NCBI RefSeq assembly: GCF_054482525.1
Contig: NZ_CM137006.1
Reading direction: 5' to 3' (one strand)
DNA: 64,000 bases
In this document: in pieces, positions 9,001-15,000 of the stretch
How positions within the stretch are numbered: the stretch's first letter is position 1
Layout of the letters: the number at the start of each line of letters is the position of its first letter
Position numbers: made by a program

Positions 9001-12000
9001 ATGGAGCGGAAGGAAATATTAAAGCTCAAGGCGTCAGTCCAGTGCTGTCCTGTTTGCTTACCACACGAAAGAGTGCTGCTTGTACCTGCTAACTAATGGT
9101 ATGCGGAGTGAGGGGGGCGGGTAGAACCAAAAGCACTTACTACGTGTGGCGCTCTCCTGGAAGAGGAGACGTCGAAGTGATAACGCTAACAACAGTCTTA
9201 CTGGTGATGCAAATAATGCTAGCTGGTCTGGTTGCCATCAAGCAACTGACTGGACGCCCGTAAGGGATGGAGGAACTTGATTAAAGGCAGGGGGGTTACC
9301 TCCCCTGCCTTTTTTCGTTTCTGCGCAAGTTAGCTCTGTTATTATAATCCTTACTCACACTGTAAGGACATAGTTCAAATGACTGAATGGCTTAATGCAC
9401 ATTTTGGTGCAGACGCAGCTACCTATCTTAGCTTATTAGTCGGCGTACTGGCACTGTTTGGTATTGGGGGCGGTGTTACATATAGAATCAGACAGCAAAA
9501 CAACATAAAACAGAAGGCAAAGAAAACCGAGGGTGATGTGAACCAGGCCGGGCGGGATATTAATCAGACCACCAACGTTTACCACACATCCAATGAATCT
9601 ACTGAGGACCCTGTAAAAAAAAAGCAAGATGAACATGATCTGAAGATAATCGACCAGATCCTTGAATTGCTGCCTTATGAGGATACTACTCAATGGGTTG
9701 AGCAGAGCTACCTGAGCGGTATACGGCAAGATGTTTGCTTAAACATTGAAAAAGCTGAAAAATTTAGCGGTGAAAAGTATCGGTTATTCAATACTGAAGT
9801 GAATGGTGCGAAAGACGCTTTTTTGGACGCTATGACCGCATACGTAGATAGTACGCTACCATTTATGAGTGTTGATTACCCGAACAGAAAGCCAGTGATG
9901 CTAAGCCTTCCCCATGACTGGAAGAGTAAGAGTGTTGAATCGGAGGCAAACTTCCGCTTTCATCAGCAAAATGTGCGTGAAACATCGGGGGGGATGATTG
10001 CGCGCTATGAGGATTTTGTCAGGACATTTAAGGCTCATGGATTCATAAGCGATAAACTGTAAAGGCGCAGTGGGTCAGCGAACACCGCAACGACAGAACC
10101 GCGTAAGCGGTAAAATCAGCTTGTTAACTGGCGAGTTTATAGCCGTCCCTCCGGGGCGGCTTTTTTATGACTATAATCGACAGAATCACCTGAACGTCCA
10201 GGTGGGTTTCCCTGACAGGACGTCAAGGAATGTTCGCTTTGTGCCAGGAGCGGACGTTGCCAGCATTGAGTTTTCAGTTTTCAAAGGTATATCTTTAGAT
10301 TTAGTTCACTTAGAATGAGCGTGTTAAAGTTTTCGGTTATGTGAGTATATTGAACATAACAAATAAACAATAATTTTTGTATTCCATTTAAGATATAAAA
10401 AAGAGGGATTTGAGTTATGTACGATTATAGTTTTTTACTTACTCCATCTACAGGATTTGTTAAAGGATTATGTGGAGTTTGGTCGAATGATTTCTCTATA
10501 AATGATGATTCTGACTCTGATTTAGGGCAAACAGATATTCATTTACTTTCATCTCCTCATTTGAATATCATATCCGACCCAAATGAATTGGCTTCCAAGT
10601 TAAAAGGTTTGTTGATGCTCATGAACGGCGCACTTAGCGTTCTTTATGGTTTTGAAAGATATCAATCTTTTGGTCCTCTTTCTATTTCTGGAAGTGAAGG
10701 CATTAATTACTCGGAAATATGCGGCTTTAAATCAATGGATGTAACTCAGGTAAATCCCTTTAATTTCCATGACATACAGCAACCACACCCTCGCGCTGAT
10801 AATTTTTCACGATTAATTAATTTATCATCTAAACATGAATCCTTACGTGTTGTTTTAGGTATGTGTGCCTTAGGTTATGATTGGGTTAATCTTTATCGTT
10901 TGTGGGAAACAATTAGAGAATATGTATATGATAAATATGTGAAAGGTATACTAAATTTTCCCGACGCTTATAAAGGCAAGAAATATCAGAGAGATAAAGT
11001 AATTAGCATGGCTTTTAATATTGATGAAAAGGAAATCAGCAGATTCACGGGCACTGCTAATAGCTTTGAACTGTTAGGGTATCTTGCGAGACATGGAAAG
11101 GGAAGTTCCGGAGGGATATTAAAAAATCCGATGTCAAGAGTTGACGCAAGCAATTTCGTACACAAAGCAACTTACAAATATTGTAAGTTATTTTTGATGT
11201 AAGTAAAAAGTTGAAGCTATAATACTCAAAGTATCGAAAACTACGTTCGTCGTGCACTCGAAAACAATATGCTTATTGTGTCTGCACTAATTACTCAAGG
11301 TCCGAGAAAAATGGCGAAGCTCATCTTTTTCAGGCTTCGCCAACTTGAGTTATTGGTTAAAATTCATTTAGGAATAATAGAATGCAATTCGTGACTCACC
11401 TGGATTTCATAGTGTTTCAATAGTTCTCCGATGTTAATTCCTACTACCTTACGAACTGCGCCGAGGGAGAAGTTAAGCTCCTCAATGCCCGGCCGATCTG
11501 GCGTTGAATTCATATAGTGTCGGCACGCACGGACAATTGACTCGACGATCAACGATAGCGGAGACTCAGGTGCAATCTCGGAGCGAATCGCCGTAAGAGA
11601 GAGTCGGAGCTCCTTCAAAGAATCCGAGACTCGTGCTGGATCCTCTTGAGCATATGGCAGATAAAGAGAACTCTTGTCTTCCAATAAATGGATCACCCGC
11701 AGAGCAATTTTCTCGTCTGGGCGATGCGATAGAAATTGAAACATTAGCCTCTTTCCTCCCTCCAAGCACTCCTTCATTAGTGATTCGTGGTCACGTTTCC
11801 ATTTTCGCAAATACTCGGCGGGGTAGCCCATACCGCCATTCTTATCAACTAAATCAGCACAAGCTCCGCACAACCATATAGCATTTTTTATGCTCTTCCG
11901 CTCTGTTTCTGACTGAGACATGTCATAGCGCGGTCCGCCAGGGCTCGCCGCGCAGATATGCGCCGCCTCACCCGTCTTGATAGAAAGATTTTCCGCCAAT

Positions 12001-15000
12001 TGATCCGGGCCGATTGTTACCCTATGACAAGAGGGATTGCTACAAATATATGTAGCGCGCTCTGCTACCTTACCTACAACGCTTGGAGGAAAGTTGTGCC
12101 TATTTGTCTTGGTCATAAAAGTTATGCTTCTTTGTTTTTTTCATCTATGTGGGGAGAATAAAATCATACTTTTTATATCTGATCCTAGGTCTGACCAGCA
12201 ACCTATTGATCAAAAAACCAAGATATTAGCTAAAAAAAATCAGCATACTTGAGACCAAGCTCAATGTCCGCTCCTCGCTCAAAGCAGACCATTCGCTCAG
12301 TTAACGCATCAGTGTCGTGCTAAAAGTAGACGTGGTTAACAACAATGTGAGTTAATCAACGGAGAGCAGGTCAACTCTAACCTGTATCAAAAAAACAAAT
12401 GTGTCACAAAGATGCCGCATGCCTTAATTTGAGTATAATTGAGACGGAAGTAGACGGTTTATGGCTAAATATTGTTGATATATAGCTATTTGAAGAGTTG
12501 TAGCGCAAGTGTATAGCCCAAACTAATAACGCTACGCCCCTTACCTTTGACGCCTCTTATCAAAGAGCGGCGATGATGCACAGCCCGCACGAGGCAATAT
12601 TCGCACAAGAATCAGGTTCAGAAATAACCTGATCTGGCATGGTGGGGAGAGTATCACTGAGCAGGCTTTCGGTAAAATGCGGCGGGATGAGGTCGGCGTG
12701 GGTTGCAGCAGTACAATGTCGCCCGCAGAGGGTAAGCCACAGCGCGGGATCCTCGGTTTCTATCAGGGATTCGACGAAGTGGGCGCAGTTGTCGACCAAG
12801 GCGGTGAAATCCATAGTGACATTATAAGGAAACGAACAATAGATCGAGTAAATCGCAGTCAGGGACAAGGATTGTAGTCATAGAGAAGTCTCCTGTAACG
12901 GTTTTCAGGAAGCTAATCCCGACGCCTGATTTTGCAGGCGCGGAAGGAGAAGATACTGCGGCCATTAATCCGCCACAAGGCATTTACGTGCATAAATCGC
13001 GCAGTCAAATCCGACTCCCACTGTAGTTCTTGAACCTGATACCACATTTAGCTAATTTAGCTAACTTATCTATTATACCAGTGGTTGCCATGAATATGAA
13101 TGAAGACGAGATTTATCGCCATATCCGGCAGGCACTTTCCAGTGCGCCTCGTAACCAGTACACCGTCGAGCTGCACCTGCAAATGATTAAATATGCCGAC
13201 AAACTGGAACACATTACGGCAAAAGCCTTTTGCGAAGGCACTGGTCTGAACCAGAGCCTCGGTACCGAATTCAGCAAAATGCGTAACTTAACCCATCGGT
13301 TAAAGGCCGCCGGTCTGAATACCGATCTGCTGTAACCGACTTACGGCACATTATCGCGCAAAACGAGATATTTAATGGCTATCAAAAAAACCGAACTCTA
13401 TTCTTCCCTGTGGGCAAGCTGCGACGAACTGCGTGGCGGGATGGACGCCAGCCAGTACAAAGACTATGTACTGACCCTGCTGTTTATGAAGTACGTTTCC
13501 GATAAGTATAAAGGCGATCCTTACGGGATGATCGTGATACCCAAAGGAGCCAGCTTTGACGATATGGTTGCGCTGAAAAATGACAAAGAGATCGGCGACA
13601 AAATCAACAAAATCATCCACAAGCTGGCGGAAGAGAACGGCCTGAAGGGCGTCATCGACGAAGCCGACTTTAACGACGAAGATAAGCTCGGCAAAGGCAA
13701 GGAAATGATTGACCGCCTGAGCAAGCTTGTCGGTATCTTTGAAGGGTTAAATCTCTCCAGCAACCGGGCCGAAGGCGACGATCTGCTGGGCGATGCCTAT
13801 GAATATCTGATGCGTCACTTCGCAACCGAATCCGGTAAGAGTAAAGGGCAGTTTTACACTCCAGCGGAGGTGTCACGTATTCTGGCGAAGGTGATTGGTA
13901 TTACTCCCGATACTCCGCAAGATGCAACGGTTTATGACCCAACCTGTGGCTCTGGTTCGCTGCTGTTGAAAGTGAATGATGAAGCCCGGCGCGGACTGTC
14001 GATTTTCGGCCAGGAGATGGATAACGCTACCAGTGCGCTGGCGCGGATGAACATGATTCTGCATAACAATGCCACCGCGAAAATCTGGCAGGGCAATACG
14101 CTGAGCGATCCGCAGTGGAAAGAGGCGAACGGCAAACTGAAAGCCTTCGATTTTGCCGTGGCGAACCCGCCTTTTTCCAATAAAAACTGGACCAACGGGC
14201 TGACGCCGAAAAAAGATCCGTTTGAACGCTTCGGCTGGGGTATTCCGCCGGAAAAAAACGGCGATTATGCTTTTTTGTTGCATATCATTAAAAGCCTGAA
14301 AAGTACCGGCAAAGGCGCGGTGATCCTGCCCCACGGCGTACTGTTTCGCGGTAACGCCGAAGCGAATATCCGTGAAAATCTAATCAAGCAGGGCTATATC
14401 AAAGGCGTTATTGGTTTGCCAGCCAACCTGTTTTACGGCACCGGCATCCCGGCGTGCATCATTGTGATTGATAAAGAGCACGCCCACAGCCGCAAAGGCA
14501 TTTTTATGATCGACGCCAGCCGGGGCTTTATCAAAGATGGCAACAAGAACCGCCTGCGTAGCCGAGATATTCACCGCATTGTGGACGTGTTCAACCATCA
14601 GCGAACGGTACCTGGCTACAGCCGGATGGTGCCCTCCAGCGAGATCGCCGGAAATGATTACAACCTGAATATTCCTCGCTATATCGAGAGCGGCGAGCCG
14701 GAAGATTTACACGATCTGACCGCGCACTTACAGGGCGGTATTCCGGCACGCGATGTGGATGCTTTGCAAGATTACTGGCGGGTATTCCCTGCCCTGCGCA
14801 ACGTGCTGTTTGCTGACGACCGTCCCGGTTACTGTCGGGCGCAGGTGAACGCGCAACAGGTGAAACCGACCATTCTGGCGCATCAGGAGTTTAAGGATTT
14901 TGCCACCCGCAGCCTGCTACCGTTTAAAGCGTGGGTGAAAGAGGCAAGTCTGGAAGAGATTCGCAAAGGTGATAAACCCAAAGCGCTAATCCACGATATC

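Follow-up and report, generated by a model that had tools for sequence, protein, structure and literature searches.

A probable repeat-delimited slot for three phage-defence modules in a CP4-44-type island of Escherichia coli

Introduction

In the DefensePredictor study (Science 2026, PMC13092281), the protein HEP3 (WP_061089765.1, encoded at 2077-2862 of the ECOR contig NZ_RRWI01000012.1) was recorded as defensive (defensive=TRUE) and named DS-29. In plaque assays, DS-29 cloned as a single gene protected against Bas60 (~6.3 logs), Candy (3.7 logs) and RB69 (1.3 logs; PMC13092281). A second validated single-gene system, DS-27, joins a SMEK module to DUF6650 (PMC13092281). DUF6650 is also ThsG, the effector in type VI Thoeris, which responds specifically to 2'cADPR (cADPR, cyclic ADP-ribose) and, in a model, forms a hexameric ring that has basic pockets (Thoeris preprint). 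Here, we describe a stretch of 64,000 nucleotides (NCBI RefSeq assembly GCF_054482525.1, contig NZ_CM137006.1; hereafter the window) in which the gene of DS-29 (ORF2) is found between two other open reading frames (ORFs). One of them, ORF3, encodes a nuclease domain fused to DUF6650, and the other, ORF1, a protein with a predicted membrane anchor. Considering the evidence as a whole, this block is likely to be a cargo slot holding three phage-defence modules, delimited by a short hairpin repeat and exchangeable by recombination.

Two further systems bear on the organization of the slot. Integron defence cassettes (bioRxiv 10.1101/2024.07.02.601686) are small, single-gene, exchangeable defence modules, as are those considered here. 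However, the window has neither attC sites nor an integron integrase, attC-type sites being found only around a Vibrio relative of ORF1. Its genes also have their own promoters and are in both orientations. The other case is that of phage P2, for which a passage of a review describes inverted repeats at the fun gene and credits them to Nilsson, Karlsson & Haggard-Ljungquist 2004, a work cited in PMC8987985 and PMC9122126.

Seen against these systems, the novelty of the block is modest. It comprises one known system (ORF2), one new fusion of known domains (ORF3) and one uncharacterised candidate (ORF1). Rather than a system of a new kind, it is a defence hotspot that can already be explained well. 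The initial annotation had presented the three genes as orphans. This was overstated, because one of them is a published system and another is built from known defence domains; the families count more than 400 protein clusters for ORF3, 32 for ORF2 and 16 for ORF1. An apparent block of orphan genes thereby becomes a readable defence hotspot.

Layout and boundaries of the slot

The coordinates of the three ORFs and of the signals around them are collected in Table 1. Several complete E. coli chromosomes match the region 9000-12600 with 100% identity, and EC_J_9 is 100% identical to the window. The RefSeq gene calls of the 100%-identical chromosome reproduce the positions and lengths first proposed for the three genes; the products, all annotated as hypothetical, are WP_000141343.1 (ORF1), WP_061089765.1 (ORF2) and WP_059356353.1 (ORF3). 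The annotation also bears out the placement of the block between the Ag43 module and a restriction-modification (R-M) locus. On one side is the backbone with Ag43 and a YeeP-like GTPase gene, on the other the type I locus hsdM-hsdS-darT-darG-hsdR. The island adjoins a tRNA-Ser gene and ghrA in the identical chromosome. Its backbone is of the CP4-44 type, with CbtA/CbeA, YeeS/YeeT-like genes, an antirestriction gene, Ag43 and the GTPase gene. An Rfam match to the IS102/IsrC small RNA (sRNA) at 7500-7724 (-; 49.8 bits for a gathering threshold of 46) lies between the GTPase gene and Ag43, the same placement as in CP4-44 of E. coli K-12. The block would thus be the cargo slot of a CP4-44-type integrative island whose backbone includes the yeeP-like GTPase, isrC and Ag43.

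Table 1. Features of the slot, given as positions in the window.
Feature	Position	Strand	Description
ORF1	9379..10062	+	227 aa; predicted N-terminal membrane helix, disordered charged linker with GRDIN motif, confident C-terminal four-helix bundle (78-227)
ORF2, DS-29 (HEP3)	10417..11202	+	261 aa; assigned by accession and sequence identity; N-terminal alpha/beta domain, C-terminal HEPN-like helical domain
ORF3, HNH-DUF6650	11364..12116	-	250 aa; residues ~9-120, Cap5-type HNH nuclease with Cys4 zinc site; residues ~122-250, DUF6650 (PF20355)
Repeat copy 1 (GTCCGCTCTGTGCCAGGAGCAGAC)	8868..8891	+	Boundary between GTPase/Ag43 backbone and cargo slot; same place relative to the GTPase gene in other strains
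Repeat copy 2 (GTTCGCTTTGTGCCAGGAGCGGAC)	10232..10255	+	Left end of ORF2+ORF3 module; point of divergence of strains without ORF2/ORF3
Inverted repeat variant	12262..12289	-	Right end of ORF2+ORF3 module
Possible decayed third direct copy (tentative)	12308..12331	+	13/24 positions match; F41 has an intact copy there
Terminator-like hairpin	9283..9312	+	13-pair stem followed by a T run; just 5' of the ORF1 promoter region
Intrinsic terminator of ORF1	10141..10161	+	Terminator scan
Hairpin (GGCGAAGC...GCTTCGCC)	11313..11342		Gap between ORF2 and ORF3; seen in the sequence itself

In base composition, the block as a whole is low in GC (0.416, for a window mean of 0.479), as first claimed, and so is ORF2 (0.346). 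ORF1 stands at 0.434 and ORF3, at 0.481, does not follow the claim, since it is at the window average. GC at third codon positions amounts to 0.44, 0.275 and 0.48 for ORF1, ORF2 and ORF3, respectively, against 0.59-0.63 in Ag43, hsdM and hsdR. Strong AT-richness is confined to ORF2 and the spacers.

The description of the first two genes as each followed by its own terminator or gap, and of the third as convergent, also stands. ORF1 has an intrinsic terminator, and ORF2 and ORF3 converge on a gap of 161 nt that contains a hairpin. This hairpin is probably a bidirectional terminator; the terminator scan missed it because its loop exceeds 8 nt. The hairpin upstream of the ORF1 promoter region would insulate ORF1 against upstream transcription. 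Altogether, the three genes of the slot would be self-contained, every one of them having a promoter and a terminator to itself. Within the ORF1 module, 5' of the ORF1 promoter, an ORF of 55 aa (9096-9263, +) with a hydrophobic C-terminal half is also found, and is followed by this very strong terminator hairpin.

The boundaries of the modules are marked by a hairpin repeat with a core of 24 nt, GTCCGCTCTGTGCCAGGAGCGGAC, present in two direct copies and one inverted variant. The canonical copy folds at -8.8 kcal/mol (z = -3.9). Around ORF2 and ORF3, the segments 10236-10259 and 12262-12285 form a pair with 88% complementarity. An identification of the repeat as an integron attC site was rejected, 24 nt being too short and the genes being in both orientations. 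No Rfam family matches the repeat, and a known RNA was rejected as well.

Comparison of strains is informative at this point. In strain 144, ORF1 is directly followed by the next gene, whereas strain F41 has ORF1, ORF2 and ORF3, the difference being a segment of 2.07 kb. Strain 144 carries a single copy of the repeat at the empty site, and empty and filled sites differ exactly at the repeat. In F41, a further intact direct copy is observed 22 nt past the inverted one. At the level of genome comparison, these strains show module boundaries that lie at the repeats. Other E. coli islands have the repeat ~150 nt beyond the GTPase gene, with a different cargo per strain. There, the repeat next to the GTPase gene is followed by a DUF2971 gene, by a DUF4365 gene or by WP_001313577.1, which is the validated DS-38.

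In strains without the R-M/DarTG segment (loci L002/L003, at 11.4-18.3 kb, and L145), the slot continues with a 366-aa HEPN protein, WP_001375260.1, followed by an integrase fragment and a pair of dynamin-family genes. From its equal length and its position in the slot, rather than from sequence comparison, WP_001375260.1 appears to be a relative of DS-38. The succession of the HEPN protein, the integrase fragment and the dynamin pair means that several defence-type modules share the slot.

ORF2 is DS-29

The translation of 10417-11199 is the sequence printed for DS-29 in the supplement of the DefensePredictor study, and the accession WP_061089765.1 appears both in the RefSeq annotation and in Table S6. 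The protein does not differ from DS-29. The ECOR contig from which DS-29 was taken also holds ORF1 (1039-1722) and ORF3 (3024-3776), with the spacing of the window. The paper is silent on these neighbours, on module boundaries and on the mechanism beyond a weak HEPN call, the HHpred analysis of its authors having given PF18867 (HEPN-like_int) with a probability of 0.59 (PMC13092281).

The AlphaFold2 (AF2) model of ORF2 has a predicted local distance difference test score (pLDDT) of 79.7 and a predicted template modelling score (pTM) of 0.80. Among 23 sequences of the family, F210, T211, T213, N215, G221, R225, H226 and G227 are invariant. The HEPN catalytic motif Rx4-6H is not conserved in these 23 sequences, R225 and H226 being adjacent. 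Since this motif is not conserved, the label of canonical HEPN RNase is one that we infer. It is most likely that ORF2 would act as a HEPN-like RNase switched on by its N-terminal sensor domain upon infection.

An inverted repeat of 21 nt (10328-10348 / 11222-11242, 81% complementary) surrounds ORF2 alone. Its right arm stops exactly where the homology with a Proteus locus is interrupted (11242 | 12127; see below). This arrangement hints at a separate boundary, possibly used by an insertion of ORF3.

ORF3 fuses a Cap5-type nuclease to DUF6650

The presence of an HNH domain in ORF3, already proposed in the initial annotation, is supported by PADLOC and profile matches and by invariant catalytic and zinc-binding residues. 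Residues ~9-120 match the PADLOC models of CBASS (cyclic oligonucleotide-based anti-phage signalling system) endonuclease effectors and of SAVED-HNH proteins. In profile comparisons, this region aligns with PDB 9om4 (4.7e-14) and with the Cap5 SAVED-HNH effectors 8ysq, 7rwk, 7rwm and 8fm1. Residues C25, C30, H53, N78, C83 and C86 are invariant in 29 sequences of the family, so that the catalytic His/Asn and the Cys4 zinc ligands are present. The PADLOC candidate PDC-M68A also matches ORF3 (E = 6.6e-24), yet the alignment covers only residues 9-119, corresponding to model positions 5-113 of 253. Nothing on the candidate PDC-M68 was found in the literature searched.

As for the C-terminal half, PF20355 is precomputed for 120 of the 120 listed relatives of ORF3, including one at 95% identity, and a relative at 99% identity carries the Prokaryotic Genome Annotation Pipeline (PGAP) name "DUF6650 family". 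A profile of residues 122-250 retrieved 926 representatives, mostly stand-alone DUF6650 proteins of 150-175 aa. The others include HNH fusions of ~250 aa and one protein (P0315) with a TIR-like N-terminus. Whether fused or stand-alone, all these architectures share the invariant residues S166, R171, R199, R222 and G226.

ORF3 can thus be compared with three defence proteins. With type VI Thoeris, it shares the DUF6650 half and the invariant S, R, R, R and G of the stand-alone proteins; it differs by the N-terminal HNH nuclease and by the lack of an adjacent TIR (ThsB) gene. HNH-DUF6650 fusions are not mentioned in the type VI Thoeris preprint. DS-27, like ORF3, is a single protein from E. coli accessory DNA with an N-terminal module and a C-terminal DUF6650, the N-terminal module being SMEK there and HNH here. 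Finally, Cap5 has a homologous HNH domain and follows the same logic of a nuclease joined to an oligomerising, ligand-binding domain, which is SAVED in Cap5 and DUF6650 in ORF3. In the annotation, no CD-NTase or cyclase gene is found near ORF3, and no SAVED domain was seen in it, only the HNH part aligning with Cap5.

Two known defence domains are newly combined in ORF3. By analogy with these proteins, ORF3 is best read as a self-contained predicted nuclease gated by DUF6650. In the most likely scheme, DUF6650 would control the Cap5-like HNH domain, which would cut DNA and abort infection, and ORF3 probably works without a dedicated partner gene.

Another possibility is that ORF3 is an orphan effector of the Thoeris type, silent until 2'cADPR or a related signal is produced by a TIR protein, whether encoded at another place in the cell or by a different mobile element, and opens the HNH domain. 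The known response of DUF6650 to 2'cADPR, the basic residues conserved between ORF3 and the stand-alone proteins, and the signal-gated behaviour of Cap5-type HNH domains in CBASS would fit such a model. So would the TIR-like-DUF6650 fusion P0315 and the occurrence of type VI Thoeris systems in E. coli strains. However, no TIR gene is annotated in the 64 kb of the window, and 13 loci of ORF3 relatives (33-100% identity) show no conserved neighbour. Only backbone genes of lambdoid prophages recur there; many copies are alone in such prophages, and five of the 13 adjoin the Q antiterminator, a classic moron slot. Moreover, DS-27 is protective when its gene alone is cloned into MG1655. We therefore consider a dependence on foreign TIR signals doubtful and retain the self-contained nuclease. 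ORF3, with its Cap5-type nuclease and its newly recognised Thoeris sensor domain, offers a simple test case for what DUF6650 senses without a TIR partner.

ORF1, a predicted membrane-anchored four-helix bundle

The membrane anchor first attributed to ORF1 agrees with a predicted hydrophobic N-terminal helix at residues 12-26. In the AF2 model, this helix is followed by the charged, disordered linker and by the bundle. The latter would be cytoplasmic, because basic residues come after the membrane helix. The family is found in Enterobacteria, Vibrio and Pseudoalteromonas. A Foldseek search with ORF1 returned members of its own family, among them a Salmonella protein with 43% identity and the label DUF4760. 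It also gave weak matches (E 0.005-0.2) to helical domains that are joined to conflict-system effectors of the HNH, TIR, Mrr and two-transmembrane (2TM) types. The idea that the helical domain is a distant DUF6650 was rejected, with a profile-profile probability below 1%.

In a Vibrio alginolyticus array, attC-type repeats enclose a single-gene cassette that encodes a homologue of ORF1 with 39% identity; a DUF2971 gene and toxin-antitoxin cassettes belong to the same array. A small Salmonella contig that resembles a plasmid carries another homologue. A role of ORF1 as a defence gene is plausible. Most likely, it would be an effector or sensor anchored in the membrane, with damage to the membrane being controlled by the four-helix bundle on the cytoplasmic side; of the three assignments, this is the least secure. 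In the linker, the motif GDVNQAGRDINQ has expanded into four tandem G/SGRDxNQ units in the homologue P0160, which suggests that the linker varies in repeat length.

The repeat in phages, islands and plasmids

The core is present in 2466 of 5426 complete E. coli genomes (45%), with 1-6 copies in each; among the copies sampled in these genomes, almost all lie in unannotated intergenic DNA. It also occurs in 61 phage records, nearly all P2-like, and in 746 Enterobacterales plasmids. Among 72 sites in IMG/VR, the core does not vary, whereas the sequences on either side of it belong to many unrelated classes. No GTPase gene was found beside the repeat in the IMG/VR contigs, where the sites are mostly in P2-like prophages, 3' of the tail-fibre assembly gene. 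Two to four copies are found at 25 of 73 further loci (68 from IMG/VR and five annotated records). One of them is on IMG/VR contig 2740892219_000010 (2245-6229; L077), where four direct copies follow each other at distances of 0.9-1.2 kb with one gene per interval. The intervals encode a 125-aa protein with several transmembrane (TM) segments, a 158-aa stand-alone DUF6650 protein and a 251-aa TM/coiled-coil protein; a GIY-YIG-like gene comes after the last copy.

In P2-like phages, P2 and L-413C among them, the repeat lies 44 nt past gene G, which serves tail-fibre assembly, and borders the variable slot between G and FI (Z/fun). L-413C has an inverted pair of the motif (2498-2522 / 3581-3605) around a cargo gene. 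The Z/fun slot and the island thus have the same 24-nt core and an inverted pair around cargo, which in the window concerns only the ORF2+ORF3 module. In both cases, the cargo is AT-rich, foreign and anti-phage. The setting differs: the site belongs to a phage tail operon in P2, whereas here it is in a chromosomal island by a GTPase gene and its direct copies partition several modules. The repeat at the edge of Z/fun, apparently that described in 2004, delimits defence modules in chromosomal islands too. The sequence of the core itself was not found in the literature searched, nor is the repeat mentioned in the recent hotspot papers found there.

Since the repeat is common to the Z/fun slot and to the island modules, the genes would be swappable among phages, islands and plasmids by recombination at the repeats. 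The comparison of empty and filled sites and the invariance of the core between unrelated flanks are consistent with such an exchange. The repeat would provide a concrete handle on the movement of small defence genes among these elements. One may go further and imagine that it is the recombination site of a widespread cassette exchange, integron-like and devoid of an integrase, among P2-like phages, CP4-type islands and Enterobacterales plasmids, within which HNH-DUF6650 would be a free-standing nuclease gated by cADPR-type signals and reading the TIR signals of other elements. This wider picture, taken as a whole, is tentative and rather unlikely. The main threads of interest remain the signal of DUF6650 in a nuclease fusion without partner, and the enzyme, if any, that acts on Z/fun-type repeats.

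Defence role and independence of the three genes

The three genes would form a small stack of phage-defence modules beside the type I R-M/DarTG locus. The defence-island neighbourhood assumed at the outset is supported by the anti-phage activity of DS-29 (PMC13092281), by the adjacent R-M/DarTG genes and by DefensePredictor, which rates all three genes as defensive. The log-odds are 5.34 for ORF1 and 5.48 for ORF3 ("Predicted novel defense gene"). The scan with defence profiles proposed in the initial annotation was productive for ORF3 only, through its matches to CBASS and SAVED-HNH effectors. For ORF1 and ORF2, PADLOC, NCBIfam and PHROGs returned nothing meaningful, and the Pfam scan gave no match even at E <= 10.

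Several observations weigh against the view of a repeat-delimited, exchangeable stack of defence modules. ORF1 and ORF3 are not in the table of tested constructs of the DefensePredictor paper, and they score (~5.3-5.5) towards the lower end of that screen. For ORF3, our own Pfam scan gave no match even at E <= 10, at odds with the precomputed PF20355, and an hhalign comparison of the ORF3 family with the one sequence of DS-27 was negative; the hexamer and the ligand pocket are carried over by analogy from the ThsG preprint. Regarding the repeats, two copies of the window have substitutions that weaken the stem, the putative third direct copy is identical at only 13 of 24 positions, and the ORF1 module is bounded by two direct copies without an inverted partner. 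Finally, the identification with the 2004 repeat is based on position and arrangement rather than on sequence comparison.

It may also be argued that the genes are not defensive, ORF3 being a selfish homing-type HNH endonuclease and ORF1 and the rest morons or decaying cargo. Phage HNH genes are indeed often homing endonucleases, ORF3 has a weak PHROG HNH match, and the four-helix bundle of ORF1 is a generic fold. Two IMG/VR copies of the island are damaged, ORF1 being split by frameshifts in both (L028 and L030) and ORF3 being cut to residues 1-192 in L030, which suggests an ongoing decay of these genes in some strains. However, the HNH domain of ORF3 matches defence effectors and not homing enzymes, and its conserved second domain is shared with validated defence proteins. 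The same slot is also occupied by validated systems, DS-29 here and DS-38 in another strain, and all three genes score as defensive. A non-defensive origin of the block is therefore improbable, and the stack of defence modules remains our preferred reading.

The genes had been viewed as single-gene cargo acquired independently. This holds in so far as each of them occurs elsewhere without the other two; in E. coli, on the other hand, ORF2 and ORF3 travel together. ORF1 is present in ~270 of the 5426 complete genomes and the ORF2+ORF3 segment in 14. As far as genome comparison indicates, ORF2 and ORF3 now move in E. coli as one 2-kb module bounded by repeats. Outside this module, a neighbourhood analysis of the kind foreseen at the outset found relatives of ORF2 alone in five settings: in K. 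aerogenes next to a DUF2971 gene, within a conjugative element of Pantoea, in Citrobacter between SMC-like and KAP-NTPase genes, and next to prophage integrase/recombinase genes in Proteus and in one further prophage. The Proteus locus keeps the equivalent of 10238-11242 and 12127-12250 of the window; the missing part, 11243-12126, is exactly ORF3. That ORF2 and ORF3 form one two-gene system, such as a sensor with its nuclease or a toxin with its antitoxin, is highly improbable. In its favour are their union in one segment with one repeat pair, which is missing as a whole where strains have retained ORF1, and the 81 nt of the ORF3 3' end that remain at the Citrobacter ORF2 locus. Against it, ORF2 protects by itself, its relatives (45-85% identity) have no DUF6650 gene nearby in the five contexts, ORF3 relatives below 99% identity are without ORF2 at all loci, Proteus lacks exactly ORF3, and ORF2 and ORF3 converge, each having signals of its own.

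Other features of the island

Several features of the surrounding island may be mentioned. In the adjacent R-M locus, darT and darG are inserted between hsdS and hsdR (17160-18880, +), so that two defence systems are interleaved, and a gene for an M48 metallopeptidase is found 3' of hsdR (21994-22710). Between the slot and hsdM, overlapping Rfam matches below threshold occur at 12880-12954 (-), to the isrK Hfq-binding RNA (42.3 bits, gathering threshold 50) and to the c4 antisense RNA targets a1/b1 (40.9 bits, gathering threshold 46.7). They are just upstream of a small helix-turn-helix-like ORF (13030-13335) and of hsdM, and this segment may be what is left of an immunity region like that of P1/P7. 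Further on in the same composite island, at ~43-50 kb of the window (2997944-3004855 of the record), are genes for a 1652-aa AAA-domain protein and an adjoining 430-aa hypothetical protein, together with a pseudogenised primase-domain gene of a 'TOTE conflict system'.

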